Below are positions 2,013 through 20,749 of a stretch of 29,955 nt of DNA, in pieces. The notes under the pieces are model-generated. The model was not told the DNA's origin and ran no database searches. It saw nothing but the letters and a program-made list of their open reading frames with translations. Source of the DNA: Candidatus Bathyarchaeota archaeon (GTDB taxonomy: Archaea; Thermoproteota; Bathyarchaeia; RBG-16-48-13; JAGMEO01); the NCBI GenBank assembly GCA_023128135.1, contig JAGMEO010000001.1:1-29955 (forward strand). The letters are read 5' to 3'. A program made the translations under genes and the position numbers. Every line of letters starts with the position of its first letter. The first letter of the stretch is position 1.

Positions 2013-2120
2013 TGGTGGGCCCGGCGGGATTTGAACCCGCGTTCTCTGGCTCCGAAGGCTTACACCAGTGTAGCTTATCTACATCTGTCAGTGCCTTGAT
2101 CCAAACTAGGCTACGAACCC
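2013..2120 (-). tRNA. tRNA-Arg(UCG) with one non-canonical 29-nt intron at 29/30; CCA encoded
   Basis: Reverse complement GGGTTCG-TA-GCCT..AAGGC-A-CTG|intron|GC-CTTCGGA-GCCAG-AGAAC-GCGGG-TTCAAAT-CCCGC-CGGGCCC-A-CCA. Cloverleaf is complete only after intron removal (79 nt). Confidence 0.93.
2060..2088 (-). other. tRNA intron at 29/30 (BHB)
   Basis: ACAGATGTAGATAAGCTACACTGGTGTAA. Central helix GCAC/GTGT, bulges TG|A and AA|G, inner hairpin CAG-A-TGTAG/CTACA-CTG. Confidence 0.9.
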
Positions 2121-2287
2121 ACAAATCAGATGTGAAAAGCACCTAAAGAGATTTTCTATTTTCTTGAATAATATATGAATAATTGTAACAATTGAATAAA
2201 TCAGTGAAAATTGTTTAAATTATAGTTTATAATTATTTGAATTGAATCCTTTATCTTCACATTTTATTGTTAAAGGAGAATCATAAT

Positions 2288-3043
2288 ATGGGAGAGACAC
2301 ATTTACAAGATCTGCAATTCCGACTTATGACCATTGAATTACTTACTATCGCTAAGAAGAAGTATACTTACAGAGAATTAGCTTCTAAAACAGGGCTTCC
2401 TGTAACAGTCCTAAGTAGATATGTTAAGGGGCATGTTCTGCCAGGAGGAGGTAGAGCGCGAAAACTATGGGTAATTTTAAAGAAGCTTGTAGGACTAGAA
2501 GAAGAGCTTAGAAGAAGAATTAAGTTTGATGAATCAGGTTACTTCGACAACACATCAATTATAAGTGATATTGCTCTTTTAAAGCAAGCTGCACAATATG
2601 CTCTATCAAAATTTGCTGGAAGGCGAATTACTAAAGTATTAACTGTTGCGACGGACGGTATACCCTTAGCCACTGTAGTGGCTGACGCGTTAAATGTCGA
2701 TTTACTAATGGTTAAGAAGAATAAAGAAGTCGGAGTGAAAGACTTCATAGAGGAAACCTTTATTCCTGGTTTTTCAGATGTAATAACCTCTCTCTATTTG
2801 CCTAAAGGGGCTGTTAAAAGAGGGGACAGTGTTCTAATTGTAGATGATGTCATAAAAACTGGCGAAACACAACGAGCATTAATGGATATGATGAAAAAAG
2901 CAAGAGCCGAGGTTGCTGGTATTTATGCTCTTATAGCAATTGAAAATGATTGGTTGTCTAAACTGCAGAATACTCCTAAATGTCCAATTGAAGTTGTCAT
3001 AACCGTGCGACCACGAAAAATAAACAAGCGAAGACAAAAATAG
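2288..3043 (+). CDS. HTH-domain phosphoribosyltransferase (PurR-like regulator / adenine PRTase family)
   Basis: N-terminal HTH (YTYRELASKTGLPVTVLSRYVKG) and PRPP-binding loop VLIVDDVIKTGET. ATG 2288 chosen over TTG 2267. Confidence 0.8.
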   Translation: MGETHLQDLQFRLMTIELLTIAKKKYTYRELASKTGLPVTVLSRYVKGHVLPGGGRARKLWVILKKLVGLEEELRRRIKFDESGYFDNTSIISDIALLKQAAQYALSKFAGRRITKVLTVATDGIPLATVVADALNVDLLMVKKNKEVGVKDFIEETFIPGFSDVITSLYLPKGAVKRGDSVLIVDDVIKTGETQRALMDMMKKARAEVAGIYALIAIENDWLSKLQNTPKCPIEVVITVRPRKINKRRQK

Positions 3044-3158
3044 TTCATCACCTAAAGATAATGTGTTTATGAGTAACTTCTATTAAAGAAATTCAGTGTT
3101 AATCGCTATCAACTTTTTAAATTATGAGATCTGTGTTTTTATCTCTAGTCGTGATTTT

Positions 3159-3692
3159 ATGTCCGAAGAAATAATTGAAGCAAGTTTCAAAAAAAGCGGA
3201 GTCATAATTCCATCTCAAAAAGACGCTGATCTTTTGTATAAAAGCGGCTATGGGATTTTACATAAACAAGATGAAGGATCAATTTTAGGATCATGCGAAA
3301 CACTTCACTTAGTTGCTGAGAAACGGCTTCATGTAATTGATAATGAGAACCGTAAGGAACTAAATTTCCCAACGCTGCTTGAAAAGTTCCGAAGTAAAGA
3401 TGCAGAGATATGGACTAGATACCTAATTTACAGGGATCTTAGAAGTAGAGGCTATGTTGTTAGAGACGGATTCAGCTTTGGGATAGATTTCCGTTTATAC
3501 GAACGAGGCAAATATGGGGAACAAGCTGCAAAGTATATTGTCTTTGGTATATGTGAAGGAATTCCGACACCTATCAAGAAGCTTAGTGAGATTCTTCGAT
3601 TCGTTCAAAGTACAAAAAAGAGTCTCATTCTTGCGGTTGTGGATAGGAGAGGTGAGATCGTGTATTATTCACTTTCTAAACTTACTTTTTAA
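3159..3692 (+). CDS. endA: tRNA splicing endonuclease subunit, probably the structural (beta) subunit
   Basis: YLIYRDLRSRGYVVRDGFSFGIDFRLYERG and LILAVVDRRGEIVYY match the EndA C-terminal domain. The catalytic His position reads EQAAKY instead of xHSxY/HAxY. ATG 3159 chosen as start. Confidence 0.88.
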   Translation: MSEEIIEASFKKSGVIIPSQKDADLLYKSGYGILHKQDEGSILGSCETLHLVAEKRLHVIDNENRKELNFPTLLEKFRSKDAEIWTRYLIYRDLRSRGYVVRDGFSFGIDFRLYERGKYGEQAAKYIVFGICEGIPTPIKKLSEILRFVQSTKKSLILAVVDRRGEIVYYSLSKLTF

Positions 3693-3704
3693 TAGAGGAT
3701 AATT

Positions 3705-4550
3705 TTGTTAAAAGCAATTGGTTTCATCAAAGTAACAAGGATTATCAATTCCTTAATGATGGGGTTTGCTGTTTTAATAGGTGAAACCATTGCACTGAGA
3801 GGTAGCCCTCCTCATTTTATGAGTACTTTGCTTGGATTTACCACTGCTTTCACTTTAACTGGGGCTTCAATGGCTGTTAATGATTATTATGATAGGGCTG
3901 TCGATGCTGTGAACGAGCCTAACCGTCCAATACCTAGTGGGATAATTTCTCCAAAAGAAACCTTAGTATATGCTGCAGCATTAGTCATTATTGGTATGCT
4001 ATCAGCGTTTTTTACAAATTATGCTTGCCTTATAACTGCTGCGATTTCATTGGCTGTATCCATGTTTTATAATACAAAAGGTAAAGCATCAGGTTTAGCT
4101 GGGAACTTTATGGTCAGCTTCAGTGTGGCGATACCATTTGTATATGGAGGATTAGTTGTAAAACAGATTGTTAATCTATCACTTCTGCTTTTTTCCTCGA
4201 TGGCTTTTTTATCGAATACAGGTAGAGAAATAACAAAAGACATAGTGGACATTGAAGGGGACAAGATAAGGAATTTAAAAACAATCGCTTTAGTCTATGG
4301 TCCTAAAAAGGCTGCAATAGTAGCAGCATTTTTTTATATTTCTGCTGTTTTTTTTAGCGTTATCCCTATCTTTCTAAACTTGGTAACTTCTAGCTACATG
4401 CTTCCTGTTGCGGCATCTGATTTTGGTTTTATTTTTTGTTCAATGTTATTATTAAAAAATTTCTCAAGGGACAATGCTAGATTTATCAAAAACACCGTGT
4501 TAATTTGTATGATTGCTGGTTTGACAGCTTTCATTATAGGAATCTATTAA
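3705..4550 (+). CDS. UbiA-family prenyltransferase, likely digeranylgeranylglyceryl phosphate synthase
   Basis: Asp-rich motifs NDYYDRAVDAVNEPNRPIPSG and REITKDIVDIEGD, with multiple transmembrane helices. Confidence 0.85.
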   Translation: MLKAIGFIKVTRIINSLMMGFAVLIGETIALRGSPPHFMSTLLGFTTAFTLTGASMAVNDYYDRAVDAVNEPNRPIPSGIISPKETLVYAAALVIIGMLSAFFTNYACLITAAISLAVSMFYNTKGKASGLAGNFMVSFSVAIPFVYGGLVVKQIVNLSLLLFSSMAFLSNTGREITKDIVDIEGDKIRNLKTIALVYGPKKAAIVAAFFYISAVFFSVIPIFLNLVTSSYMLPVAASDFGFIFCSMLLLKNFSRDNARFIKNTVLICMIAGLTAFIIGIY

Positions 4551-4572
4551 CATTACTTCAAGTTGCAATAAC

Positions 4573-4671
4573 TGGCGGGCCCGCGGGGAATTGAACCCCG
4601 GATCTGCAGCTATCTTCCATGGGGGGTATCATTAGGAGGCTGCTGCCTTATCCAGACTAGGCCACGGGCCC
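4573..4671 (-). tRNA. tRNA-Arg(CCU) with 21-nt canonical intron (4612-4632); CCA encoded
   Basis: GGGCCCG-TG-GCCT..AGGC-A-GCAGC-CT-CCT-A|ATGATACCCCCCATGGAAGAT|A-GCTGC-AGATC-CGGGG-TTCAATT-CCCCG-CGGGCCC-G-CCA. Confidence 0.93.
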
Positions 4672-4781
4672 AAGGCTTCAAAAGTTTAGGGAATATAAAT
4701 TTATTGTCATTCTTTTCTCGTTGTTAGATAAGACAACGAATTTTGTTGTATCCGTGTGACCCAGGATGTTTGTTGGCGCCC

Positions 4782-4812
4782 TTCGGCAGGAGCGAATAGT
4801 TACTCACTCCTT
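4782..4812 (-). other. tRNA intron in the 3' strand of the acceptor stem (68/69), strict hBHBh'
   Basis: AAGGAGTGAGTAACTATTCGCTCCTGCCGAA. Central helix CGGC/GCCG, bulges CA|A and AA|G, 10-bp inner hairpin AGGAGTGAGT/ATTCGCTCCT, outer CC/GG. Confidence 0.9.
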
Positions 4813-4842
4813 TGGCCGGGATTTGAACCCGGGTCGAGCGGG

Positions 4843-4855
4843 ATCTGCGTTTTTT
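4843..4855 (-). other. Canonical 37/38 tRNA intron (BHL type, 13 nt)
   Basis: AAAAAACGCAGAT. CTGT/GCAG helix, bulges CG|A and AT|C. Confidence 0.88.
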
Positions 4856-5009
4856 CGACAGCCACTCATGTTAGACCTGACTGCACCACCAGGGCTATAT
4901 TTGATATGATGATTAGAAATTTGGAACTATATAGCTTATTTAAGCATTTACATACCTTTCCATCTCCCAAAAACATCAAAGAAAATAATTTTTGGTCCCG
5001 CGGGAGCGA

Positions 5010-5039
5010 GTTTCAGCTAAACATTAAATTGATTATGCT
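5010..5039 (-). other. T-loop tRNA intron at 59/60 (30 nt)
   Basis: AGCATAATCAATTTAATGTTTAGCTGAAAC. Helix TTCA/TGAA, bulges AA|A and AC|T, outer helix is the T-stem. Confidence 0.88.
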
Positions 5040-5061
5040 TTTGAACGCCCGACACTCCGGT

Positions 5062-5107
5062 GTCTGTTAGCTTGGTATGTTAAGTTTTGTCTATCTAAGG
5101 TAGACAT
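5062..5107 (-). other. Canonical 37/38 tRNA intron (46 nt, possibly a composite of two)
   Basis: CTGT/ACAG helix, bulges AG|A and AC|A. Confidence 0.85.
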
Positions 5108-5114
5108 CTACAGC

Positions 5115-5145
5115 GTCTCCGTCCTTTTCATTTGAAAAAGTGGCT
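5115..5145 (-). other. tRNA intron at 30/31 (31 nt)
   Basis: AGCCACTTTTTCAAATGAAAAGGACGGAGAC. Helix CTTC/GGAG, bulges CG|A and AC|G, inner hairpin CTTTTTC/GAAAAGG. Confidence 0.87.
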
Positions 5146-5201
5146 CGGAAGCTCTACCAAGCTGAGCTACCGCGGGATAAATCAAAGAAAATGAAAATTG
5201 G

Positions 5202-5215
5202 CATATAAATCTTCT
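5202..5215 (-). promoter_or_regulatory. Putative BRE/TATA for tRNA-Tyr
   Basis: Minus strand AAGAAGA-TTTATATG about 26-33 nt upstream of C1 (5176). Confidence 0.5.
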
Positions 5216-5298
5216 TTGATTTTAAACATCTATATTTTATCTCAGTTTTCAGAACAATAATAAGTAAGCTGAACATAAATCACGATATCTAATAACAC

Positions 5299-5305
5299 TT
5301 ATAAG
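5299..5305 (+). promoter_or_regulatory. Putative TATA box for tRNA-Lys
   Basis: TTATAAG about 35-40 nt upstream of G1 (5340). Confidence 0.4.
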
Positions 5306-5339
5306 TCAACTAGATTTTCTCTTTCGGTGAAAAACAAGT

Positions 5340-5416
5340 GGGCCCGTAGCTCAGCAAGGAAGAGCACCGGGCTTTTAACCCGGTGGTCCTGGGTTCAATT
5401 CCCAGCGGGCTCACCA
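5340..5416 (+). tRNA. tRNA-Lys(UUU), intron-less; CCA encoded
   Basis: GGGCCCG-TA-GCTC..GAGC-A-CCGGG-CT-TTT-AA-CCCGG-TGGTC-CTGGG-TTCAATT-CCCAG-CGGGCTC-A-CCA. Confidence 0.96.
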
Positions 5417-5695
5417 CAGATAATTCTCCCGTTGTTCTTCATGATTCAGTATAGTTGTCTAAGAATTGTGGAGATCAGTAAGCTAACACATCCCGGTGAG
5501 TCTACGATAAAGTTTATAAAGTTCTTGACGTTGCTACTTTTGTTAACTTTAGATTTAGAGGCAATCCCTCTTATGAAATTTGGATTTTTTAGACTAGGTG
5601 ACTTTCTAGTTAAATCTGTTTGGAGGAAATAAGTCCTTGATTACGAATTTGGGAATTAACGTCATTGAATTGCATGCACAGGGAGTTAATGCTAA

Positions 5696-8600
5696 GTGTT
5701 GAATAATTTGCAATCATCAAAATTAGACCTTTGGATTTTAATGAAAAAATATATTGAAGAAAAAGGCTTGGTTAGGCAGCATCTTGATTCATATAATGAT
5801 TTTATAGATACGGGTTTACAGGAAATAGTGAGCGAGGTAGGGAAAATTCAGGTAGAAGCCCAAGATTATCCTTTTGAAGTTAAGCTTGGGAAGATTGAGG
5901 CCACTTGTCCACGAATTGTAGAGGTAGATGGTTCAGATCACACAATTTATCCGATGGAAACTCGGCTAAGAAATCTAACTTATTCTGCTCCTCTATACCT
6001 TGAAATGATACCTGTAAAAGACGGGTGTGAAGGGCTCTCAGAAACTGTTTACATCGGTAATTTTCCAGTTATGTTAAAGTCTAAACTATGTCCTCTTTCT
6101 AAGATGACTCCAGAGGAGCTAATTAAGGCAGGTGAGGATTCAAACGATCCTGGCGGGTACTTTATTGTTAATGGTTCAGAAAGAGTGACTGTTGCAATGG
6201 AGGACTTAGCCCCAAATAGAATATTGGTTGACATCGACGATAGTGGAACTAAGCCTGTTTACAGGGCAAAAGTCTTCTCAACGACGGTTGGCTTTAGAGC
6301 AAGAATTGAAATAAAAATGAAGCATAGTGGAGGTATCTATGTTTCTATACCGGGCGTTCCATCTGAGCTCCCAATAATTATATTGATGAGAGCTTTAAAC
6401 CTGGAGTCAGATAAAGATATAGTAACATTGATTTCAAGCGATGAAAAAATCCAGGACCAGCTTGAACCCTCTTTTGATGAAGTTCAAGGAATAAGTACAA
6501 CTCAGAATGCAATAGCGTATATTGGTAATAGAGTCGCCTATGGTCAAATTGAGGAGTATAGGATTAAAAGGGCTGAGAGCATTTTAAGTAGGAACTTTTT
6601 TCCTCACATAGGTCAAACAAACGAACACCATTTGGAGAAAGCAAGATTTCTAGGAGAAATGGTTTTAAGGGTTATTGAATTAAAACTGGGACGCAGAAAG
6701 GAAGATGATAGGGATCATTATGCAAATAAACGATTGAGATTAGCTGGGCCTCTTCTATCAGACCTCTTTAGGATAGCCTTTCGAAGTCTATGCAGAGACA
6801 TAAAATATCAATTAGACCGTATGAGTATCAGAAGAAAAGCCCTCTCAATTCCTACCGCAGTAAGACCTGGAATAGTAACAGATCGTATGAACCATGCTTT
6901 GGCAACAGGAAACTGGGGACGAGGAAGAGTTGGAATGACACAGCTCTTAGATCGTAAAAATTTTATATCAACCTTAAGTCACTTAAGACGTCTCCAATCT
7001 CCTCTTAGTAGAAGTCAACCAAACTTCGAAGCTAGAGATTTACATCCAACTCATTGGGGACGTCTTTGTCCCAATGAAACACCTGAAGGTTCAAACTGTG
7101 GTCTGGTAAAAAACCTAGCTCTTATGGCATCCATTTCTGTTGCTGCTGATACTGATAAGGTTATACGTTTCTTAAGTCATCTAGGTGTAGTATCTACAAC
7201 TAAACCTATTTCAGAGGATGAGGAAGTTTATGCAAAAATCTTTGTTGATGGCTCTCTAATCGGATACCATAATGATCCAGTTTCCTTAGTGAGAGCTTTT
7301 AGGAAGGCTCGTAGGCATGGAGAAATAGATCCAGAGGTTAACATTGTTTACTACTCTGAACACAAAAGAAAGGTCTCCCCTATAATTTTCGTGAATTGTA
7401 ATGTTGGAAGAATACGACGGCCATTAATAATAATAGAAAATGGCGAATCCAAACTCACACTCGAACAAATCACGAGACTAAAAAAAGGAGAAATCACTTT
7501 TGATGATCTTATATTAGAAGGTAGTATAGAATATCTAGACGCAGAGGAAGAAGAAAACGCATATGTGGCTTTAAACCATGAAAGCTTAACATCCAAGCAC
7601 ACCCATCTAGAAATTGCATCTTACACAATACTTGGCATATGTGCATCAACAATCCCATATGCTGAGCATAATCAGTCTCCTAGAAACTCCTATGAAGCAG
7701 CGATGGCTAAACAAGCTTTGGGTGTTTATTCAATTAACTACTTCAACAGAGCAGACTCGCGATCACACTTCCTTCATTATCCCCAAAAACCACTAGTAAC
7801 AACAAAACCAATGGAAGTCTTACACTACAACGAAAAACCATCTGGACAAAACTGTATAGTAGCTGTTCTATCCTGCAAAGGCTATAATATGGAAGACGCT
7901 ATCGTATTAAACAAATCTTCAATACAACGGGGTATGTTTAGATCCTTTTTCTATCGGGTCTATGTTGCAGAAGGGAGACAGTACCTCGGTGGATTAAAAG
8001 ATAAATTTGAAACTCCATCTTCTGACATAAGGGGCTTCAGAGGAGAACAATATTATAAACTACTTGAAGAAGACGGTGTTATTGGCGTAGAATCTCTTGT
8101 TGATGGGAGCGAGGTACTTATCGGCAGAACAAGTCCACCTCGCTTCTTAGAAGAATATAAGGAGTTTGAACTCAAAGGTCCTACAAGAAGAGACACCTCT
8201 ATTACTATGAGATCTGCCGAAGCAGGAACTGTTGATGAAGTATTTCTAATGGTTTCAGCTCAAGGCAATCGGCTGGTTAAGGTTAAGGCTCGGGATCAAA
8301 GAATCCCGGAGCTAGGAGATAAATTTGCTTCTCGACACGGACAGAAGGGAGTAATCGGCATGGTTATTCCTCATGTTGACATGCCTTTTACAGAAGATGG
8401 CATTGTTCCAGACATAATAATTAATCCTCACGCCTTCCCTTCTAGAATGACTGTGGGACAGTTTGTTGAGTCTATTTCAGGTAAAGTTGCAGCCTTAGAT
8501 GGTGAAGTCATGGATGGAACGCCTTTCTACAGTTTGACAGTGGATGAGATAAGGAAAAAACTCTTTAGTCTAGGCTTTCAGCACAGTGGCAGAGAAGTTA

Positions 8601-9052
8601 TGTATGATGGTTTGACCGGGAAAAAATACGAAGCAACCATCTTTATTGGTGTCGTATACTACCAGAAACTCCATCATATGGTAGCAGATAAAATACATGC
8701 AAGGGCGAGAGGACAAGTACAGATGCTTACCCGGCAACCCACTGAAGGAAGAGCTAGGGGCGGAGGTTTACGATTCGGGGAAATGGAAAGAGACTGTCTA
8801 ATAGGATATGGTGCATCTCTTCTTCTGAAAGATAGGCTTTTGGACGAGTCAGATAGAACAATCATATATGCTTGTGAGAAATGTGGTTTCATCGGATTCT
8901 ATGACTTTAAGAAAAGAAAGTATATTTGCAGAGTGTGTGGAGAGAACACTGTTATTTCCCCTATTGTTGTCTCCTACGCTTTTAAACTTCTATTACAAGA
9001 GTTAATGAGTCTGGCTATTGCACCAAGAATGAAGCTTGGAGGACGAGCGTAA
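5696..9052 (+). CDS. rpoB: DNA-directed RNA polymerase subunit B (Rpo2, unsplit)
   Basis: LVRQHLDSYN, DKFASRHGQKG, KLHHMVADKIHARARG, GGLRFGEMERD and a C-terminal Zn ribbon; 1118 aa, no intein. Confidence 0.97.
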   Translation: MLNNLQSSKLDLWILMKKYIEEKGLVRQHLDSYNDFIDTGLQEIVSEVGKIQVEAQDYPFEVKLGKIEATCPRIVEVDGSDHTIYPMETRLRNLTYSAPLYLEMIPVKDGCEGLSETVYIGNFPVMLKSKLCPLSKMTPEELIKAGEDSNDPGGYFIVNGSERVTVAMEDLAPNRILVDIDDSGTKPVYRAKVFSTTVGFRARIEIKMKHSGGIYVSIPGVPSELPIIILMRALNLESDKDIVTLISSDEKIQDQLEPSFDEVQGISTTQNAIAYIGNRVAYGQIEEYRIKRAESILSRNFFPHIGQTNEHHLEKARFLGEMVLRVIELKLGRRKEDDRDHYANKRLRLAGPLLSDLFRIAFRSLCRDIKYQLDRMSIRRKALSIPTAVRPGIVTDRMNHALATGNWGRGRVGMTQLLDRKNFISTLSHLRRLQSPLSRSQPNFEARDLHPTHWGRLCPNETPEGSNCGLVKNLALMASISVAADTDKVIRFLSHLGVVSTTKPISEDEEVYAKIFVDGSLIGYHNDPVSLVRAFRKARRHGEIDPEVNIVYYSEHKRKVSPIIFVNCNVGRIRRPLIIIENGESKLTLEQITRLKKGEITFDDLILEGSIEYLDAEEEENAYVALNHESLTSKHTHLEIASYTILGICASTIPYAEHNQSPRNSYEAAMAKQALGVYSINYFNRADSRSHFLHYPQKPLVTTKPMEVLHYNEKPSGQNCIVAVLSCKGYNMEDAIVLNKSSIQRGMFRSFFYRVYVAEGRQYLGGLKDKFETPSSDIRGFRGEQYYKLLEEDGVIGVESLVDGSEVLIGRTSPPRFLEEYKEFELKGPTRRDTSITMRSAEAGTVDEVFLMVSAQGNRLVKVKARDQRIPELGDKFASRHGQKGVIGMVIPHVDMPFTEDGIVPDIIINPHAFPSRMTVGQFVESISGKVAALDGEVMDGTPFYSLTVDEIRKKLFSLGFQHSGREVMYDGLTGKKYEATIFIGVVYYQKLHHMVADKIHARARGQVQMLTRQPTEGRARGGGLRFGEMERDCLIGYGASLLLKDRLLDESDRTIIYACEKCGFIGFYDFKKRKYICRVCGENTVISPIVVSYAFKLLLQELMSLAIAPRMKLGGRA

Positions 9053-9053
9053 A

Positions 9054-12000
9054 ATGTCAGAAGAAGCAGAGCTTTCTAAAGTGTTAGAACAGATAAGTTT
9101 TGGTCTTCTGTCTCCAAGTGAGATCAGAAAACTCTCAGTTGTTGAGATTAAGACTGCTGACACTTACGATGAAGATGGAGCACCAATAACATCAGGACTT
9201 ATGGATGGACGTTTGGGAACACTTGAACCCAGACAAAGATGTAAAACCTGTGGTAATACTGCGGCACGTTGTCCTGGACACTTTGGTAACATCGAATTAG
9301 CTGTTCCAGTCATTCATGTAGAATTTGCCAAGATCATTTACAAATTGTTGACAACCGTATGTCGAAGTTGTGGTCATGTTCTCCTATCCACTGAAAATAT
9401 TAATCAATATCGTGAGAAGATGAAAAATGAAGAACAATCGCTTGGTTCCATTTCAAAGACTATGTATAAAAAAATTGAAAAAAACGCGAAAAAAAATACA
9501 ATATGTCCACATTGTGGTGCGAAACAATTAAAGATCAAGTTTAGCAAGCCAACAACCTTTCATGAAATACTTGAAGATGGTGGAGTTCGAAAACTTAATG
9601 CAAGTATAATAAGGGAGCGACTTGAACGAATTCCAGACAATGAGCTTGACATTCTAGGCTTCAATTCAAACGTGGCAAGGCCTGACTGGATGATTCTTCA
9701 TACGTTGCCAGTACCACCTGTTTATGTCCGTCCTTCTATAACTCTTGAATCTGGGATAAGATCTGAAGATGATCTAACTCACAAACTCGTAGACATCATA
9801 AGAATAAATCAAAGATTGAAGGAAAACATAGACGCTGGAGCACCAACCTTAATAATTCAAGACTTATCGGAACTTCTTCAATACCATGTTACAACATATT
9901 TCAATAATGAGGCTTCAGGGATTCCACCAGCAAGGCATAGGTCTGGAAGACCTTTAAAAACCATATCTCAAAGGTTAAAGGGTAAAGAGGGGAGATTTAG
10001 AAGTAACCTCTCTGGAAAAAGAGTAGACTTCTCTGCACGTACAGTAATATCGCCTGATCCCAACATTGGTATAAATGAAGTTGGTGTTCCCTATGCTGTT
10101 GCAAAGCAACTTACAATTCCTGTAAAAGTGACACTTTTTAATATTGATGAGATGAAGAGACTAATAATAAATGGTCCAGATAAATATCCAGGTGCCATTT
10201 ACGTTGTGAGGCCAGATGGTAAACGCTTAAGATTGGAGTTCGTTACAGAACGAGAAAAAATTGCAGAAGCCATACAACCAGGCTTCACAGTCGAACGTCA
10301 TCTAAGAAACGGAGACATTGTAATATTTAATAGACAACCTTCTCTGCACAGAATGTCTATTATGGCTCATCATGTTAAGGTACTGCCTTACAAAACCTTT
10401 AGACTAAATCTGTGTGTATGTGTACCTTACAATGCTGATTTTGATGGTGATGAAATGAACCTCCATGTCCCTCAAAGCACTGAGGCTAGAACAGAGGCTC
10501 ATATGCTCATGAGGGTTCAAGATCAAATTCTTTCACCTCGTTATGGAGGGCCAATAATTGGCGCTATTCGTGATCATATAAGTGCAGCTTTTCTTCTCAC
10601 CAGTGATTTCACAAAGTTTGGAAAGGAAGAAGTATACCATCTCCTAACAGCAGTCGGATATGACGGTCCTATGCCTAAGCCAAAGATTAAAGGTAAAAAA
10701 CCATTGTGGACAGGCAAACAAATTTTCAGTCTCTTCCTTCCAGAAGGATTCAATTACACATTGAAGTCGAGCATATGTAGACATTGCTCTGTATGTCTCC
10801 AAGAAAAATGTAAGAACGATGCTTTTGTCGTAGTAAGAAATGGAGAGTTAAAGAAAGGTGTTATAGATAAAAACTCAATTGGCGCTGAAAGATCTGAAAG
10901 TATGTTTCACAGAATCGTAAAAGACTATGGAACAGAAGCAGGAAAGACATTTCTGAACTCTATGAGTAGACTTCTTACAGAATTCATCTCTATTCTAGGC
11001 TTCACCTTTTCAATCGATGAACTAGACCTTTCAGATAGAGCAAAGAAAAAGATTAGGAGTGTCCTTGAAAGAGCTGAAAAAGAAGTTCAAGAATTGATTC
11101 AAAAATACAGGAATAAAAGTCTCAAGAGACTTGCTGGAAAAACACTCGAGGAATCCCTCGAGATATATATAATGAATAAGCTAGCTCAAGCAAGAGATGA
11201 AGCTGGAAAAGTGGCTGACCGCTTCTTCACTATTGAAAATCATGGAATAATAATGACTAAAACGGGAGCGAGAGGATCAAATCTTAACATAGGGCAAATG
11301 GCTGCTTGTTTAGGACAACAATCAGTAAGAGGAAAGCGAATCACCCTTGGATATAAGGGTCGAACACTCTCCCACTTCAAAATAGACGATCCGAGTCCAG
11401 AGGCTAGAGGTTTTGTTAATGCATCTTACAGAACAGGGCTAAACCCAACGGAGTTCTTCTTCCACGCTATGGGTGGAAGAGAGGGTCTGGTAGATACTGC
11501 GGTACGAACACAACAAAGCGGATATATGCAACGTAGACTCATAAACGCTCTGGAACAGCTGCGGGTTGAATATGATGAAACTGTTAGAAACTCTGTAGGA
11601 GACATAATTAGTTTCAAACACGGTGATGACGGTGTTGACCCCGCTAAGAGTGATCATGGGAAAGCGGTAAACATAGAAAGACTAGTTGAGACTATTAAAT
11701 TAACTACTCGAGATGGAAAACCAGTTTCCAAAAATTACATTGAAAAACAGGTTAATGAACTAGATGCCGAACTTTCTCCGGCACTCCAAAACGAGCTTAA
11801 AAAACAATTATTAAAAGTGAAATTGGGCAGAAAAGGTGTCAACAAAGCAATATTCGCTACTGTAAAAAACTTTAAAAGAACGCTTGTAGAGCCTGGTGAA
11901 GCAGTTGGCATAGTTGCGGCTCAATCTATTGGAGAACCTGGAACCCAGATGACATTACGTACTTTCCATTATGCTGGAGTAAAGGAGATGAACGTCACTT

Positions 12001-12869
12001 TAGGCCTCCCTCGTTTAATCGAGATTGTTGACGCTCGTCGATCACCATCAACTCCAATAATGACAATTCCATTAGATAAGGAACATAAAGTGAGTAAAGA
12101 AAAGGCAACTGAAATTGCACATAAAATCCTTTCGACAACAATCGAGGACGTGGCAAAAAAAGTATACATTGACTCAGAGCAAGCAGCAATAGTAATAGTG
12201 CTTGATAAAGACACGATGAAGGCTTATGATATAACTTTAGAAAAACTTCATGCACTTCTTTCATTTCCCAACTGTAATGTAAAGGTTGACGGAGAAACTA
12301 TTCTAGTAACTTCAAAGAAAACTGATCAAGATCTTCGAAAATTATTGGCAAAAACATCATCAGTACATGTCAGGGGAGTCCCTGATATACGTAAAGTCTT
12401 AATAACCGAAGAAGGAAACGAGTGGCGGCTGAATACAGATGGCTCTAACCTTTCGAAGACACTTGCGATTTCGGGTATAGACCCAACTAGAACAGTAACA
12501 AACAACATCCATGAAATAGCTAAGAGCCTAGGTATAGAAGCAGCTAGAAACTCTATCATACGAGAGGCATTCAATGTTCTTGGGGAACAAGGTCTTGACG
12601 TTGATCTAAGGCACATAATGTTAGTAGCTGACATCATGACGCACACTGGGGAGATTCGTCAAATAGGAAGACACGGAGTTAGTGGGCAAAAATCAAGTAT
12701 CCTTGCAAGAGCTGCTTTTGAAATTACTCTACCAACCATTGTTGAAGCAGCTACCAAAGGCTCTTCAGATAGACTTAATGGAGTCACAGAATCTGTAATT
12801 GTGGGTCAAAATATACCTATCGGCACTGGGCTCATCGAGTTGTACATGGGAGGCACAAAGAAATCTTAA
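9054..12869 (+). CDS. rpoA: DNA-directed RNA polymerase subunit A (Rpo1, fused A'+A'')
   Basis: NADFDGD catalytic motif, and A''-type motifs (AAQSIGEPGTQMTLRTFH, TLGLPRLIE) in the same ORF. ATG 9054 follows a GGAGGA SD. Confidence 0.96.
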   Translation: MSEEAELSKVLEQISFGLLSPSEIRKLSVVEIKTADTYDEDGAPITSGLMDGRLGTLEPRQRCKTCGNTAARCPGHFGNIELAVPVIHVEFAKIIYKLLTTVCRSCGHVLLSTENINQYREKMKNEEQSLGSISKTMYKKIEKNAKKNTICPHCGAKQLKIKFSKPTTFHEILEDGGVRKLNASIIRERLERIPDNELDILGFNSNVARPDWMILHTLPVPPVYVRPSITLESGIRSEDDLTHKLVDIIRINQRLKENIDAGAPTLIIQDLSELLQYHVTTYFNNEASGIPPARHRSGRPLKTISQRLKGKEGRFRSNLSGKRVDFSARTVISPDPNIGINEVGVPYAVAKQLTIPVKVTLFNIDEMKRLIINGPDKYPGAIYVVRPDGKRLRLEFVTEREKIAEAIQPGFTVERHLRNGDIVIFNRQPSLHRMSIMAHHVKVLPYKTFRLNLCVCVPYNADFDGDEMNLHVPQSTEARTEAHMLMRVQDQILSPRYGGPIIGAIRDHISAAFLLTSDFTKFGKEEVYHLLTAVGYDGPMPKPKIKGKKPLWTGKQIFSLFLPEGFNYTLKSSICRHCSVCLQEKCKNDAFVVVRNGELKKGVIDKNSIGAERSESMFHRIVKDYGTEAGKTFLNSMSRLLTEFISILGFTFSIDELDLSDRAKKKIRSVLERAEKEVQELIQKYRNKSLKRLAGKTLEESLEIYIMNKLAQARDEAGKVADRFFTIENHGIIMTKTGARGSNLNIGQMAACLGQQSVRGKRITLGYKGRTLSHFKIDDPSPEARGFVNASYRTGLNPTEFFFHAMGGREGLVDTAVRTQQSGYMQRRLINALEQLRVEYDETVRNSVGDIISFKHGDDGVDPAKSDHGKAVNIERLVETIKLTTRDGKPVSKNYIEKQVNELDAELSPALQNELKKQLLKVKLGRKGVNKAIFATVKNFKRTLVEPGEAVGIVAAQSIGEPGTQMTLRTFHYAGVKEMNVTLGLPRLIEIVDARRSPSTPIMTIPLDKEHKVSKEKATEIAHKILSTTIEDVAKKVYIDSEQAAIVIVLDKDTMKAYDITLEKLHALLSFPNCNVKVDGETILVTSKKTDQDLRKLLAKTSSVHVRGVPDIRKVLITEEGNEWRLNTDGSNLSKTLAISGIDPTRTVTNNIHEIAKSLGIEAARNSIIREAFNVLGEQGLDVDLRHIMLVADIMTHTGEIRQIGRHGVSGQKSSILARAAFEITLPTIVEAATKGSSDRLNGVTESVIVGQNIPIGTGLIELYMGGTKKS

Positions 12870-12931
12870 TGAAACATAATAATTTATTTTATACATAAAC
12901 CCCTCATAGACACAAAGGGAGAAGCTATACC

Positions 12932-13670: not shown

Positions 13671-13773
13671 TGACAAAGCTGTGATTTTTCATGACCGCAT
13701 CTTTTAAGGTTTAAAATAAACATAAACAATAAATAAATCTTGAACAACCAAAGTACTGAAATGATGATTTTAA

Positions 13774-14214: not shown

Positions 14215-14263
14215 GCAATAATAGGCTATTTTTAATGTTAATGTTCTAAATAAAATCCCGCTT

Positions 14264-14854
14264 TTAACGTGATGATAAAGCAATCCTTTCCATTTCATTC
14301 TTTTTTTGAACAGCGTAGCTTCTATTATCACCATCTGAAGCAGGGATAAGTTCATCTGCTAAACATTCTTCAATAGTTTTAGGAGTGCCAAAGGATGCTT
14401 TTCTTGCACCTTCAGATATGAATCTTAATGCTAAGTCTATTCGTCGTTGAGGAGCTATGTCAACTGACATGTGATATACGATGCCACCAAAACTGATTCG
14501 AGTTGTATCTTCGCAGGGTGCAGTATTCTCTACAGCCCTAACTAATACTTCAACAGGGTTTCTTCCTGCTTTTAGATTGATAATTTCGAAAGCGTCTTTC
14601 ACAATTTTTATTGCTTTAGCTTTCTTGCCTCCATTCAGTCCATGTCGCATCATATTGTTTACAAGCCTTTCTGTAATTGCGACCTTCGATTTTCCAAATT
14701 TTTTGTGTTCATGTCTACCTCCACTATGCGGTAAATAGGTTGTTCCTAAGCTCAAATAACGTTTTAGACCATTGTCTTTTAATTCAATGTCATCAGTTAG
14801 CCATTTACCGAATAACTTAGTATTACTTGAATCCTTTTTCTCAGTCACTATCAT
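14264..14854 (-). CDS. rps7: Ribosomal protein uS7, inverted relative to rps12 and tuf
   Basis: KLFGKW, ERLVNNMMRHG, NPVEVLVRAVEN, VDIAPQRRIDLALRFI, ERIALSSR. ATG 14854 follows a GAGGAG SD. Confidence 0.96.
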   Translation of the reverse strand: MIVTEKKDSSNTKLFGKWLTDDIELKDNGLKRYLSLGTTYLPHSGGRHEHKKFGKSKVAITERLVNNMMRHGLNGGKKAKAIKIVKDAFEIINLKAGRNPVEVLVRAVENTAPCEDTTRISFGGIVYHMSVDIAPQRRIDLALRFISEGARKASFGTPKTIEECLADELIPASDGDNRSYAVQKKNEMERIALSSR

Positions 14855-14898
14855 GGAGCTCCTCATTAATTTAGGAAGTTCGTCTAACCGTAATTCTT

Positions 14899-14914
14899 AA
14901 TATAAACTTTATTA
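14899..14914 (-). promoter_or_regulatory. Putative BRE/TATA for the inverted rps7
   Basis: Minus strand TAATAAAG-TTTATATT, 45 nt upstream of the rps7 ATG. Confidence 0.5.
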
Positions 14915-14982
14915 TCTAAATGTTAATCCTTATCTACTAGTAAGTTAAATCTAAAAAAGAAATAGGAACATGGTGAAAACAT

Positions 14983-16287: not shown

Positions 16288-16399
16288 TCTTCCCTTTATA
16301 TCTCACATTTTTATTATAAAACTGATTCAACACATTTTCTAGATTAAACATAAACACAACAGTTCCAGATTTGAATTTTCCATAAAAAAGTGAAGTTAT

Positions 16400-16708
16400 A
16401 TGGTTCAAAAAGCACGAATACGTCTCACAAGTACGAACCAGAAAAAACTGGAAGAGTTGTGTAGTGAAATTAAAGACATAGCCAGCAAGACAGGAGTTAA
16501 ACTTGCTGGACCTATTCCTTTGCCAACTAAGCGTCTGACTGTACCAACAAGAAAGTCACCATGTGGGCAAGGGACACCTACATGGGATCGATATGAAATG
16601 CGGATTCACAAGAGGCTTATCGAAGTTGAGGCTAACGAACGGACTATGAGAAGAGTAATGCGCCTTAGAGTTCCAGATGAAGTTTTTATAGAAATCACTC
16701 TTATCTAA
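16400..16708 (+). CDS. rps10: Ribosomal protein uS10
   Basis: [29 protein letters not shown]. Confidence 0.97.
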
Positions 16709-16765
16709 TTTTTGTATTATACTATGTTCTTAACATCTCAGGCTTTAGAACACCTGTAAGGCAGT

Positions 16766-17170
16766 CTATAAGAAATTTACCTTTTTAGATATTTTCGCCT
16801 TTTTATAAACCATCCATGATGTAGCGACATCTTGAATTGCTAGGCCAGTTGAGTCAAATATTGTGATCTCATCATTAGATGTTCTCCCCTCCCTAATTCC
16901 CGTAATTACTTCCCCGATTTCAGCGTAGATGTCTTTCTGGGTTTTTAGGATGCACATTAACTATTTTCACACTGCGATATCGCTTTTCTCTAAATATGTA
17001 GCATAGTTCTAAAATCTCAATGATGTTTTTAAAGAAAACATATAACTTAGGAGGCATCTGTACCTTCCCAAACCCTTTTTCCCTGAAGGCGGGTTCTACA
17101 GCCTCCAGCGTCTCTTTCATAGTTAAGAGTGGTCTAACCTCTTTGTCTGTTAGAATTGCGACCGCGCCAT
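16766..17170 (-). pseudogene. Alanine dehydrogenase / ornithine cyclodeaminase (mu-crystallin family) pseudogene
   Basis: Fragments in different frames: ILTDKEVRPLLTMKETLEAVEPAF..GKVQMPPKLY, DFRTM, YLEKSDIA, VKIVNVHPKNP, then directly the C-terminal IYAEIGEVITGIREGR..ITIFDSTGLAIQDVA. The central NAD-binding region is missing. Confidence 0.85.
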
Positions 17171-17252
17171 TTTTTCCTTCCTTTTGAACTTACAAAAGCC
17201 GTCATAGAATCAAGATTATTAACTATCCTAATATGAATTAATTTGAGATATA

Positions 17253-17270
17253 TATTCGATTGATCGAATA
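17253..17270. promoter_or_regulatory. Perfect 8-bp inverted repeat (TATTCGAT-TG-ATCGAATA), candidate transcription factor site
   Basis: Seen directly; abuts a minus-strand TATATATC element upstream of the AlaDH/OCD pseudogene. Confidence 0.45.
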
Positions 17271-17412
17271 CTGAAACTATACAAGGCGTCATCAAGGAAT
17301 AAATAAGATATCTTTTTACAGCAGACGGTTCCCTTAGGAACACTCTACGTGGCAGTGCTAATCGGCATAAGTCGCTTTCCGATCGGTAGGGAGAAAAATT
17401 TATGTGTATTAT

Positions 17413-17514
17413 TGGCGCCGGGAAAGGGATTTGAACCCCTGAGATCCCAAAGGATCACAGACTCCCCTGATTTTTTCTCAAGGCCTGCGCTTTTATCCAC
17501 TCAGCCATCCCGGC
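17413..17514 (-). tRNA. tRNA-Ser(UGA) with 13-nt canonical intron (17464-17476); CCA encoded
   Basis: GCCGGGA..CAGGC-CT-TGA-G|AAAAAATCAGGGG|A-GTCTG, long variable arm GATCC/GGATC, G73. BHL helix CTTG/CAGG. Confidence 0.93.
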
Positions 17515-17591
17515 ATTATTAGAATGAAGCAAATCGTATTGAATAAATACTTTTTTGTCTTTCATCTCTACTTGAAGTATGGAGTTAAACC

Positions 17592-17831
17592 TTGTTGCAA
17601 TTTGATTTTCTTGAACACACCGCAGATGCCTATATTGCAGCTTATGGAAGAACCTTGGATGAAGCGTTTGAAAACGCGGCTTTAGCTATGTTCGAGATCA
17701 TAACTGATATAAAAACAATAAGACCGGGATTTCAAACCTTCGTTGTTCTTGTTTTTTATCAAAAGAGTTTTAAACCTCCAATAATACATGAGGTTCCAAT
17801 ATTTTATTCTTGTAGTTTAGGGTATCTGTAG
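17592..17831 (+). pseudogene. Archease (RtcB cofactor), truncated after about codon 45
   Basis: FDFLEHTADAYIAAYGRTLDEAFENAALAMFEIITD matches the archease N-terminus. The sequence after about 17726 is unrelated, and no frame contains the C-terminal KAxTYH motif. Confidence 0.8.
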
Positions 17832-17937
17832 GTCCCCATTTCAGAAAATTAGTTTGTGAAATACACAAACATTTTTGTTTAATAGTGTTTCTCAAGTTTA
17901 AATTTGTAAGATAAACAGAAAATTTTGCGTTTTTTTA

Positions 17938-18333
17938 TTATACTCTGCGTCCTCTGCGCCCCCCAGGTCTTCTAGTTCCATCGTGAGGTACAGGCGTTAA
18001 ATCTTCTATTCGTCCAATTCTCAACCCTGATCTTGCAAGAGCTCGTATTGCTGCTTGAGCTCCTTGACCAGGAGTTTTTGATCCTTGTCCACCAGGGGCG
18101 CGAACTTGTATGTGTATTGCATTTATTCCTTTATCTTTAGCTTTCTGAGCAGCGTTTGAGGCTGCCTGCATTGCAGCATAAGGGCTTGATTCGTATCGAT
18201 CTTGTTTCACAAACATTCCACCCGTACACATGGCTATGGTTTCTGCGCCTGTTAAATCTGTTATGTGTACTAACGTGTTATTGTATGATGAGTATATCTT
18301 TGCTAATGCCCATCGGTCTTTTGTTTTGCTCAT
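17938..18333 (-). CDS. rps11: Ribosomal protein uS11
   Basis: [43 protein letters not shown]. Confidence 0.97.
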
Positions 18334-18411
18334 TATTATATCACTTTTGTTTAGTCGAATTGAGATCAGTTTGTCTTAATTTTTCTTATATAACTAGGAG
18401 TGGGTACCTTT

Positions 18412-18951
18412 TCAACTCTTAGGTACCGATGAATTTGTAAGTGCCTTCTGTATTGGGTGATCTGGTGTGGCAATGGTGCTTGTTGGTGCATATGTTAAAG
18501 TGGGTTCGTCGTCTCTTTTGACGATGTAACTTGGAAAAATAATTCTTTTTCCTTTGATAGCTATGTGTCCATGTACAATCATCTGCCTCGCCTGATGTGG
18601 TGTTTTGGCTAATCTCTGTCTGAAAACGATCATCTGAAGCCTTCTTTCTAGAAAATCTTTAATGGTTAAATCAAGTACATCAGCTAAACTTGAATTTGCA
18701 GAGATGAGACCAACAGAGAAAAGTTTTGAAAGAAGTTGTTTTTCAGCTTTACTTCGTTCTTTTCTTGTCTTTCCTTGCAGTTTTCTAGCCATAGCTCTGT
18801 ATTTTGAAAGTTTTGTATGGTGACGCCATAATTCTCGTTTATTTCTAAGTCCATAATCACCAAGAAGTCTTAGTTCAGTCTCAAGATTATCTTTTGACCA
18901 AGGATACTTTGGTGTCTCAAACTTCTTTCTTTGCCTTTTCGGGTCTCCCAT
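18412..18951 (-). CDS. rps4: Ribosomal protein uS4
   Basis: MGDPKRQRKKFETP, YGLRNKRELWR, LERRLQ, QARQMIVHGHI. Confidence 0.97.
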   Translation of the reverse strand: MGDPKRQRKKFETPKYPWSKDNLETELRLLGDYGLRNKRELWRHHTKLSKYRAMARKLQGKTRKERSKAEKQLLSKLFSVGLISANSSLADVLDLTIKDFLERRLQMIVFRQRLAKTPHQARQMIVHGHIAIKGKRIIFPSYIVKRDDEPTLTYAPTSTIATPDHPIQKALTNSSVPKS

Positions 18952-18960
18952 GTCAATAAC

Positions 18961-19437
18961 CTACTTTTTTTCTGCTCTCTTCATTGCAATGATACGTTTC
19001 TTCTTTACTCCTACCACTCTTCCTGTTCTTCCAGTGGTTTTAGTCCTCTGTCCTCTAACTTTTAAACCTAACGAGTGGCGAATGCCTTTCCTAGTTTTTA
19101 TTTTCTTCATAAAGTCAATGTTAGCCTTAACTCGGAGAACTAAATCAGAGCCTATTAGATGAGTGTTTTCTCCAGTTTGAAATTCTCTTCGATAATTTAA
19201 AAGCCAATGTGGTATTCCATGCTTGACAGGATCTTTAAGTACCTGCTCAATTTTATTCACGTCTTCATCGTTAATGTGACCAATTCTAATGTCAGGATCC
19301 GAATTTGTGATTTTAATAATCGCGTTGGCAACGTTAATGTTCACTCCCTTAATCTTTGCTAATGCAAAGCCCAATTTCTGAGAGCCGTCTAGATCAGTAC
19401 CATGGATCCTTACAATGTGACGGAGTTCTTTAGACAT
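18961..19437 (-). CDS. rps13: Ribosomal protein uS13
   Basis: RHIVRIHGTDLDG, GIRHSLGLKVRGQRTKTTGR. ATG 19437 follows a GGTGA SD. Confidence 0.96.
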   Translation of the reverse strand: MSKELRHIVRIHGTDLDGSQKLGFALAKIKGVNINVANAIIKITNSDPDIRIGHINDEDVNKIEQVLKDPVKHGIPHWLLNYRREFQTGENTHLIGSDLVLRVKANIDFMKKIKTRKGIRHSLGLKVRGQRTKTTGRTGRVVGVKKKRIIAMKRAEKK

Positions 19438-19596
19438 TTTTTCACCGCTCATTTTTATAATCGAGAATTTTGGATTCTATATAAATCTTTATCATCTATA
19501 AATTTACGAAGTTGTGTCTTAAATGATTTAAATATGATGTTATTGTGGCGCCGGGGAGGGGATTTGAACCCCTGTGACCCTGAAGGATCACAGGCT

Positions 19597-19611
19597 ACCT
19601 GGTGTTTTTGT
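19597..19611 (-). other. Canonical 37/38 intron (15 nt, BHL)
   Basis: ACAAAAACACCAGGT. CTGG/CCAG helix, bulges AA|A and GT|A. Confidence 0.9.
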
Positions 19612-19619
19612 TTCCAGGC

Positions 19620-19641
19620 TTTCGCTGTCAATTGGTGACAA
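19620..19641 (-). other. tRNA intron at 29/30 (22 nt)
   Basis: TTGTCACCAATTGACAGCGAAA. Inner hairpin TGTCA/TGACA, central helix GCGC/GCGA (3 of 4 pairs), bulges AG|T and AA|G. Confidence 0.85.
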
Positions 19642-19656
19642 CTGCGCCATACCAGA

Positions 19657-19684
19657 TTGCCCTTTCATCATCAAGTGACGAAAT
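19657..19684 (-). other. D-loop tRNA intron at 15/16 (28 nt)
   Basis: ATTTCGTCACTTGATGATGAAAGGGCAA. Helix GCCT/GGGC, bulges AG|A and AA|T, 8-bp inner hairpin TTTCGTCA/TGATGAAA. Confidence 0.87.
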
Positions 19685-19724
19685 CTAGGCGACCCCGGCT
19701 GTAAAGTTTTATAATTTCTAATCT

Positions 19725-20749
19725 TTAAACTTCCTTTTGCTTTTTTCTCCAAAGACGTGGATAAGTGCCAATTGGCATTATCACTCTTTCAATTTTTGCA
19801 GCTATACCATGATCTTCTTTCATCATTTGTTCGCTTGACATCATTGATCTTGCTAAAGCAATCAATTCTTCCTTTTGTGTAAAGATTCCAACAATATTTT
19901 GAGGTTTAATTCTTGAGTGTAATTTTAATACGCCTGGGAGAGCAAGACCAGCACCATGGCAAAGTGCATCTACCGCAGAATCGCGAACAAAAATTTTTGG
20001 GGTTAATTGAAATGCGTTTTCAACAGGTTGCACGATCTTCCTGATATAAGATTCGTCTTCTTTTTCTTCCCATAACGAGTAAGCGTAGTTTACATCGTAG
20101 AGGGTTACAAGGCTATCATCTTCTTTAAATGGGCCAGCCTGTGTCCTTCTAAGCTCAACCATATGAGCTCCAGAACCTATTACTTCTCCAATGTCAAAGC
20201 ATAGTTTTCTAATATATGTACCGGCTTGACATCCAACCCTGAAGAGGATATAATTATCTTTAAGTTCCAAGTTTTTTATGTAGTAAATTTTTCTCTTTCT
20301 AAGAACTCTTTTAACAGAGGAACGTAATGGTGGTCTCTGATAGATTTCTCCAACAAATTCATCCACAGTTTTTCTAATTTTTTTTTCCTGTATACTAGTA
20401 TGGAGACGCATGACACATACATATTCTTTCCCTGTTGTAAGAAGTATTCTCATGATTTTTGTAGCGTTTTTTAAAGTAATTGGTAGAACGCCTGTTACCT
20501 TTGGGTTTCCCCGGTTTAAGCCTCTAGGGTTCCTCCGTGTCCAGCACGTTCAATTTTTAAAATACGCTTAACCCACGCTACTACCTCATGACTTGTTGGT
20601 CCTGGCGGCTTATCTAAGTTAATGATTCCATTACGTAGATAATTTTGAATTGGTCTTTTTTCAGGGAAGCAGCCATATGTTAGATTTGTGCCTTCTTCAG
20701 ATTTAACAAGTATCTTTGACTTAACTGTCCATGGGATTAAAATATTCAA
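19725..20749 (-). CDS. cbf5: H/ACA pseudouridine synthase Cbf5; two exons (20749-20524, 20506-19725), 335 aa after splicing
   Basis: Exon 1 ..[24 protein letters not shown]. Removing 17 nt restores G|AC-CCA-AAG ([12 protein letters not shown]) in frame with exon 2 ([19 protein letters not shown] domain). TTG start after a GGAGGT SD. Confidence 0.93.
20507..20523 (-). other. Pre-mRNA BHB intron in cbf5 (17 nt)
   Basis: AGGCTTAAACCGGGGAA. Helix CCCT/GGGG, bulges AG|A and AA|A, inner GG/CC; contains an in-frame TAA. Confidence 0.88.

Follow-up and report, generated by a model that had tools for sequence, protein, structure and literature searches.

The stretch of DNA analysed here, which we call the window, spans 29,955 nucleotides (nt) of a Candidatus Bathyarchaeota archaeon (contig JAGMEO010000001.1 of assembly GCA_023128135.1, positions 1 to 29,955) and carries seven transfer RNA (tRNA) genes, six of which are interrupted by 11 introns lying at tRNA positions 15/16, 29/30, 30/31, 37/38, 59/60 and 68/69, as well as a cbf5 gene with an intron in its messenger RNA (mRNA). 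Very probably, this density is normal for tRNA genes in the Bathyarchaeia lineage to which the organism belongs, where most tRNA genes hold one to three short (12-46 nt) and AT-rich introns at the canonical as well as many non-canonical positions, the introns being mostly old and vertically inherited at fixed sites. The original prediction, made from the letters of the window alone, had listed the same introns, which our tRNA solver and the splice of cbf5 reproduce, and had presented the load of the locus as special; this second part did not survive inspection of the rest of the genome, where 19 of 23 tRNA genes are interrupted by 25-27 introns.

These figures come from a census of 32 seeded regions in the source assembly, here called G000 (620 kb in 121 contigs, denoted by C-numbers; 76% complete; 38% guanine plus cytosine, GC), of which the window constitutes contig C1. 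The census is a lower bound; when a de novo scan was tried, one coding tile produced poor solutions by the hundred. The whole assembly has 30 recognisable tRNA genes, 26 forming the main census and four having been parsed by relaxed rules or by hand, and 25 of the 30 are interrupted by about 36-38 introns. Only 10 introns in the genome lie at the canonical 37/38 position, the rest being spread over about 20 other positions; those found outside the window occupy 10/11, 16/17, 17/18, 21/22, 22/23, 23/24, 25/26, 27/28, 30/31, 32/33, 34/35, 37/38, 43/44, 44/45, 53/54 and the variable arm, and eight of the 19 interrupted genes there contain two inserts, if we count a gene of 113 nt on contig C56 (7637-7749) in which about 40 extra nt form two blocks. 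Every solved gene folds into a cloverleaf with zero or at most one stem mismatch, CCA is encoded in 22 of the 26 genes of the main census, and each anticodon is represented in the assembly by one copy, except for three genes with CAU. The introns have a GC content of about 0.38, equal to the genome average, and the exons one of 0.63.

Some individual features of these genes deserve mention. Of the 34 introns that were solved, 28 start with A and most end with A or AA beside the 3' splice site, which suggests that A is preferred in the bulges. The near-universal U33 appears to be replaced by C33 in tRNA-Pro(GGG) (C64:244-318, loop CCGGGGC) and tRNA-Val(GAC) (C35:5534-5625, loop CCGACAC), and the gene on C56 may encode a tRNA-Trp with the same substitution. 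A second valine gene, tRNA-Val(UAC) (C75:2973-3068), is interrupted at 27/28 by an intron of 23 nt, and its T-loop, UGCAAAU, has G in place of the conserved U55. A tRNA call by ARAGORN on contig C28 was judged false.

Standard programs recognise few of the window genes: ARAGORN reports two of the seven, or five with its intron option, and Rfam finds three above threshold; even ARAGORN with introns together with Rfam at a relaxed E-value misses tRNA-Tyr entirely and mis-parses other genes. We rely on a custom solver that builds the full cloverleaf and allows inserts only where a motif resembling the bulge-helix-bulge (BHB) can form, permitting on equal terms the true geometry and its mirror-image decoy. 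In the true geometry, a central helix of 4 base pairs (bp) has a 3-nt bulge 3' of each strand, and the cut falls after the second bulge nucleotide, following the published rule (PMC2738675). All 34 solved introns of the genome adopt the true geometry and none the decoy. Reversed sequences gave no solution above q = -1.5, whereas the window genes reach q values of 4.1 to 10, and every tRNA gene accepted genome-wide has q of at least 1.5. For all seven window genes the solver returned a cloverleaf with zero mismatches, and the best set of introns was unique for every gene but tRNA-Ser(GGA). Removal of the inserts produced the canonical cloverleaf of the right class (I or II) for the anticodon in all six interrupted genes, and all seven genes encode CCA. 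The predicted mature tRNA-Asp aligns without gaps to the intronless Asp gene of G026, and the predicted mature tRNA-Tyr to a gene of G013 that has the 37/38 intron only (G-numbers other than G000 and its sister species, G001, denote other Bathyarchaeia genomes compared).

On the minus strand of the window, tRNA-Arg(UCG) (2013-2120) contains an intron of 29 nt (2060-2088) at 29/30, in a single zero-mismatch solution with a central helix H of 4 bp and a flanking helix h' of 3 bp. It is followed by tRNA-Arg(CCU) (4573-4671), with 21 nt inserted at 37/38 (4612-4632) in a motif having three of four central pairs, h of 5 bp and h' of 2 bp. Besides 13 nt at 37/38 (4843-4855), tRNA-Asp(GUC) (4774-4895) has an intron of 31 nt at 68/69 (4782-4812), within the 3' acceptor strand, which forms a strict hBHBh' motif with an inner hairpin of 10 bp; this hairpin is present also in the minimum free energy (MFE) fold, in which the flanking helix is paired otherwise than in the BHB model. 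Three introns, at 30/31 (5115-5145), 37/38 (5062-5107, 46 nt) and 59/60 (5010-5039), interrupt tRNA-Tyr(GUA) (4993-5176). Further along the same strand, tRNA-Ser(UGA) (17413-17514) has 13 nt at 37/38 (17464-17476), while tRNA-Ser(GGA) (19546-19699) again has three inserts, in the D-loop (19657-19684, best placed at 15/16), at 29/30 (19620-19641) and at 37/38 (19597-19611); the MFE fold of its 5' part shows a helix, a 3-nt bulge and an 8-bp hairpin (z = -2.7). The intronless gene is tRNA-Lys(UUU) on the plus strand (5340-5416), which is recognised by Rfam (70.6 bits) as well as by the solver. Across the window, the central helix has all four pairs in nine of the 11 introns.

How far do these introns extend beyond the genome in which they were noticed? 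All 11 are common to the sister species G001, and most are common to other genera or families. The notion that they were peculiar to this genome is not supported, as relatives carry the same Asp, Tyr and Ser(GGA) introns in orthologous genes, an outcome that the original prediction had itself named as its refutation. The 68/69 intron of tRNA-Asp is found in G000, G001, G004, G007 and G013 (in the latter with a lower-scoring solution having one stem mismatch), thereby spanning three families of the order, and is absent from the intronless gene of G026, which belongs to another order. The 30/31, 37/38 and 59/60 introns of tRNA-Tyr occur together in each of the four family members that were read (G000, G001, G002 and G004); G013 has only 37/38, and among the genomes compared 30/31 and 59/60 are confined to this family, f1. 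The 29/30 intron of tRNA-Arg(UCG) is present in G000, G001, G003 and G009, and also in G002, where the solution scores lower and has one stem mismatch, the orthologues of G027 and G013 (the latter with one stem mismatch) being intronless. In the closer relatives, tRNA-Ser(GGA) lies 3' of cbf5 as it does here, and its D-loop, 29/30 and 37/38 introns are found in genomes in which Cbf5 identity is 54-75%, some genomes being without one of the introns and one having 29/30 alone.

Superimposed on this stable pattern are differences of single introns. Orthologues of tRNA-Arg(CCU) retain 37/38 and some also have 15/16, 22/23, 30/31 or 45/46, G009 having extra introns at 30/31 and at 15/16, the latter in this genome only. 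The Asp gene has an intron at 20a/20b in G004 only, and introns at 34/35 and 53/54 in G007, 53/54 being restricted to it; tRNA-Lys(UUU), intronless in the window, has introns in G013 and G026. At a broader scale, the number of tRNA matches by Rfam in genomes at least 90% complete, a rough proxy, is 19-35 in this order (median 26) versus 30-42 in other orders (median 38), and compact genes make up 6 of 25, 3 of 23 and 7 of 19 matches over the cut-off in genomes of this order versus 25 of 42, 16 of 37 and 14 of 36 in others. Other orders of Bathyarchaeia are also intron-rich, but less so than this one. The original prediction of an independent centre of intron proliferation holds in the sense that an intron-rich group exists outside Thermoproteales, at the level of the order and class, this order especially. 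Separately, in four families (f25, f20, f23 and f26; genomes G055-G158, at least 90% complete) merely 10-21 tRNAs were recognised by Rfam, with 32 candidates scored per genome; we take this figure as a hint only that these families are possibly even more heavily interrupted.

The enzymes that would process such introns are partly encoded in the window itself. The EndA gene noted among the tRNA genes (3096-3692, plus strand) is indeed there, with both Pfam domains, tRNA_int_endo_N and tRNA_int_endo, and is of beta type: Ala occupies the place of the catalytic His, while Tyr and Lys are retained. Since the His is missing in this protein and in each of its 20 orthologues from across the class, the window gene encodes a structural, non-catalytic beta subunit. 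Its catalytic partner was located on contig C67, where an alpha paralogue has the Tyr-His-Lys triad and matches over its full length the catalytic chain of Aeropyrum pernix (3P1Z_B, E = 2.6e-43); compared at the level of sequence, its loop region GKPVGIPKPKTAEF aligns with the loop GQPLDVEKPRGADF of 3P1Z_B, and thus contains the lysine-rich Crenarchaea-specific loop with its conserved Lys, which is linked to a broad substrate range. Most genomes of the class contain two EndA paralogues. These features support a crenarchaeal-type (alpha-beta)2 endonuclease, which would explain the tolerance of non-canonical sites.

We infer splicing, its order and the mechanism of gain, whereas gene structures, motif geometry, conservation and the enzyme repertoire were read directly. 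Each pair of junctions would fold into a BHB or its relaxed form, in which a 4-bp helix joins the 5' exon with the 3' end of the intron; the (alpha-beta)2 endonuclease, with the beta chain from the window and the catalytic alpha chain from C67, would cut after the second bulge nucleotide, and RtcB with archease would join the exons. The same machinery would excise the 17-nt intron of cbf5 mRNA. Over evolutionary time, the introns would be passed on across the order, each at its fixed position in the orthologous genes, and now and then a single lineage would gain or lose one.

The archease remnant beside tRNA-Ser(UGA), correctly recognised as such, lies at 17601-17726 on the plus strand and covers the N-terminal 42-43 of the 136 positions of the Pfam family, so that the window has no full-length archease. 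At the syntenic place, G001 has an intact archease followed by RtcB. Homology with this genome stops at about 17734, and independent contigs, obtained in three studies, cross the junction between archease and S11; the truncation is therefore real and constitutes a rearrangement scar. The stump belongs to a decayed spacer (16709-17937) which also contains two pieces of a pseudogene for ornithine cyclodeaminase/mu-crystallin (16769-17189, minus strand), matching positions 261-311 and 5-80 of the 314 in Pfam OCD_Mu_crystall; in G001 the spacer is shorter, then followed by archease and RtcB. The pseudogene has no counterpart in G001 and is extraneous to the intron system.

Among protein genes, the intron of cbf5 (archaeal dyskerin, a pseudouridine synthase; 19725-20749, minus strand) is of the same kind. 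It occupies 17 nt (20507-20523) between exon 1 (20524-20749) and exon 2 (19725-20506), the latter encoding the Pfam domains TruB_N, TruB_C_2 and PUA, and its excision joins G|AC, restoring the codon of the catalytic Asp and with it the motif GHGGTL-D-PKVTG. The motif of the intron comprises a 4-bp helix (CCCU/GGGG), 3-nt bulges (AG|A and AA|A) and an inner helix of 2 bp. Of 74 Bathyarchaeia cbf5 loci, 64 have an insert of 16-33 nt, which in every case follows the first letter of the Asp codon, and a 4-bp helix together with an inner helix is formed by 61 of the 64 in the true geometry versus none in the decoy. Among the 10 loci without the intron are records bearing the labels Hodarchaeota, Sulfotelmatobacter and Krumholzibacteriaceae, probably through mis-binning or mislabelling. 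In the literature, an intron of 16-44 nt at the same site has been described for Desulfurococcales and Sulfolobales, and the 2009 survey, which saw none in Thermoproteales, Thaumarchaeota and Korarchaeum, placed its origin in the ancestor of the two former orders (PMC2738675).

The expectation that many more mRNA introns would be found was not borne out. A genome-wide search for BHB motifs joining open reading frames recovered cbf5 and returned 1729 candidates in the true geometry versus 1686 in the decoy, with no excess at any stringency. In this genome aIF5B is intact, forming a single open frame of 605 amino acids (aa); pcm runs off the end of its contig, and the assembly has no 16S or 23S genes.

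What other explanations could account for the accumulation of introns in the window? If the locus were a special hotspot, in which introns accumulate at tRNA genes lying near genes for the splicing machinery, one could point to its 1.57 introns per tRNA gene versus about 1.1-1.2 elsewhere in the genome, and to the position of EndA-beta and the archease fragment within 15 kb of each other. However, the difference is small (seven genes versus 23, 19 of the latter being interrupted too), the catalytic alpha subunit is encoded on another contig and the archease is a dead fragment. Moreover, every relative that was read across the class has tRNA genes next to EndA-beta, the combination of Arg, Asp, Lys, Tyr, His, Leu or Thr varying among them, and this holds even for G027, in which the adjoining genes are intronless; the adjacency is therefore old synteny, persisting in intron-poor relatives. 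We consider such a hotspot very improbable and already largely refuted, and the co-location of introns and splicing genes, to which the original prediction had given a meaning, would reflect conserved synteny plus a rearrangement scar, devoid of functional coupling. A recent burst of gain in the genome or genus, by transposition as documented in Thermoproteales (PMC4033280, PMC4090602) or by reverse splicing and retro-integration, would agree with the single-intron differences among relatives (Asp 20a/20b and 53/54, Arg(CCU) 15/16, Tyr 30/31 and 59/60), which indicate that gains or losses are ongoing in the order. Yet an all-versus-all comparison of the 34 introns gave a best local score of 16, whereas the maximum averaged 18.5 over 30 shuffled sets, so that no similarity emerged beyond the controls, and the window introns are as widely shared as described above. 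There is thus no support for recent copying or transposition, or for the retro-integration that the original prediction had envisaged, and a recent burst seems to us unlikely; old copying may still have occurred, since short introns lose similarity fast.

It could also be argued that the interrupted genes are decaying pseudogenes or artefacts of assembly, the working tRNAs being encoded elsewhere, given that the assembly is incomplete, that standard finders miss several of the genes and that real pseudogenes (the cyclodeaminase and the archease) do occur in the window. The pattern of divergence from the sister species speaks against this, for identity amounts to 99.3% in exons (535/539), 93.5% in introns (261/279) and 86.9% in flanks (730/840), tRNA-Ser(UGA) being fully identical together with its intron. 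The nearly perfect cloverleaves, the encoded CCA and the single gene per anticodon also argue for functional genes, while relatives assembled independently show these structures again and independent contigs cover the region 16600-18500. We regard decay or artefact as extremely improbable.

The reading that we favour, namely that the window shows the ordinary tRNA genes of an intron-rich lineage, also has points that weigh against it. In two of the 11 window introns the central helix has three of four pairs, and strict hBHBh' motifs are formed by only 2-3 of the 11, since both flanking helices reach at least 2 bp just in Asp 68/69, Tyr 59/60 and Arg(CCU) 37/38, the last with the imperfect central helix. 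The remaining introns are of the relaxed HBh' or hBH type, on which (alpha-beta)2 enzymes are known to act (PMC4090602). The D-loop cut of tRNA-Ser(GGA) is ambiguous by a few nt, near-equal zero-mismatch solutions differing only there. Because the solver accepts exclusively BHB-like inserts, the presence of the motif is partly built in, a bias that the decoy geometry, the controls on reversed sequences and the orthologues without introns help to reduce. The counts for relatives derive from Rfam match lengths and a few loci rather than full censuses, and neither RtcB nor another copy of archease was found in the 76%-complete assembly. Splicing itself is deduced from structure and conservation; folding energies of the short junction pieces, taken alone, are non-significant.

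The tRNA genes of the window are interspersed among other genes. The order begins with a class I aminoacyl-tRNA synthetase, tRNA-Arg(UCG), a helix-turn-helix phosphoribosyltransferase, EndA and a UbiA prenyltransferase, and continues with tRNA-Arg(CCU), tRNA-Asp, tRNA-Tyr, tRNA-Lys, rpoB and rpoA; then come L30e, NusA, S12, S7, EF1A and S10, followed by the decayed spacer, tRNA-Ser(UGA), the archease fragment, S11, S4, S13, tRNA-Ser(GGA) and cbf5, with cytidylate kinase, an EMC3/TMCO1-like membrane protein and SecY beyond. The rpoA gene (9036-12869, plus strand) is unsplit, forming one open reading frame of 1277 aa with Rpb1 domains 1-5 and no division into A' and A''. The intact rps7 (14264-14866, minus strand) is inverted within the otherwise co-oriented cluster S12 - S7 - EF1A - S10. 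DNA of this uncultured archaeon is found in metagenomes from cold seeps, marine sediments and hydrothermal vents.

Although the locus itself is not unusual, the observations have consequences beyond it. Standard finders miss or mis-call interrupted genes and make Bathyarchaeia look poor in tRNAs, biasing whatever is concluded from tRNA counts about completeness and codon usage. A globally abundant sediment lineage with conserved multi-intron tRNAs and differences of single introns offers good material for studying the gain and loss of BHB introns, while the occurrence of the cbf5 intron in Bathyarchaeia, at the very site known from Desulfurococcales and Sulfolobales, alters the published timing of its origin. 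Putting these elements together, we tentatively raise the possibility, to which we give somewhat less than even credence, that this order, and perhaps several other families, form a further independent hotspot of tRNA introns beside Thermoproteales and some Asgard families, with introns kept for long at fixed positions, turnover of one intron at a time and no families of similar sequences, which would point to a route of gain other than the transposition proposed for Thermoproteales; in addition, the cbf5 intron would be much older than published, ancestral to Thermoprotei and Bathyarchaeia, or else repeatedly inserted at the same nucleotide of the Asp codon.

In the literature that was searched, no paper links Bathyarchaeia with a load of tRNA introns. 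The gene structure is of a kind already known, and what that literature lacks is a report of it in this lineage. The closest parallel lies in Thermoproteales such as Pyrobaculum, Thermofilum and Caldivirga, in which tRNA genes with multiple introns are well documented (Sugahara 2008; Fujishima 2010; reviewed in PMC4033280, PMC4090602). As in these organisms, interruption affects most tRNA genes, a single gene having as many as three introns, the BHB motifs are relaxed and the endonuclease would be of the (alpha-beta)2 type, and positions 29/30, 30/31, 53/54 and 59/60 appear in the accessible part of the published Thermoproteales list, where 15/16 and 68/69 do not. Unlike them, the present genome belongs to the class Bathyarchaeia, comes from cold seeps and marine sediments and has 38% GC, and no families of similar introns were found in it, the signature of transposition, similar introns in different tRNA genes of one genome, being seen in Thermoproteales and not here. 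Some Asgard families also have dense introns, many of them in the D-arm and missed by standard software, but they belong to another phylum and average 2.2 introns per gene in the focal families versus about 1.2-1.3 here (bioRxiv 10.64898/2026.10.13.758758). For cbf5, the likeness is with the intron of Desulfurococcales and Sulfolobales (Watanabe 2002; Yokobori 2009, PMC2738675), given the identical site, a size within range, the relaxed BHB and the same cut, whereas the distribution among Bathyarchaeia departs from that published. The endonuclease, finally, resembles the heterotetrameric EndA of A. pernix (PDB 3P1Z, 3AJV) and that of S. tokodaii (2CV8), with the triad and basic loop in alpha and a beta chain without His; it differs from the crenarchaeal beta chains in keeping Tyr and Lys in beta, the sequence of which is closer to the EndA of M. 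jannaschii.

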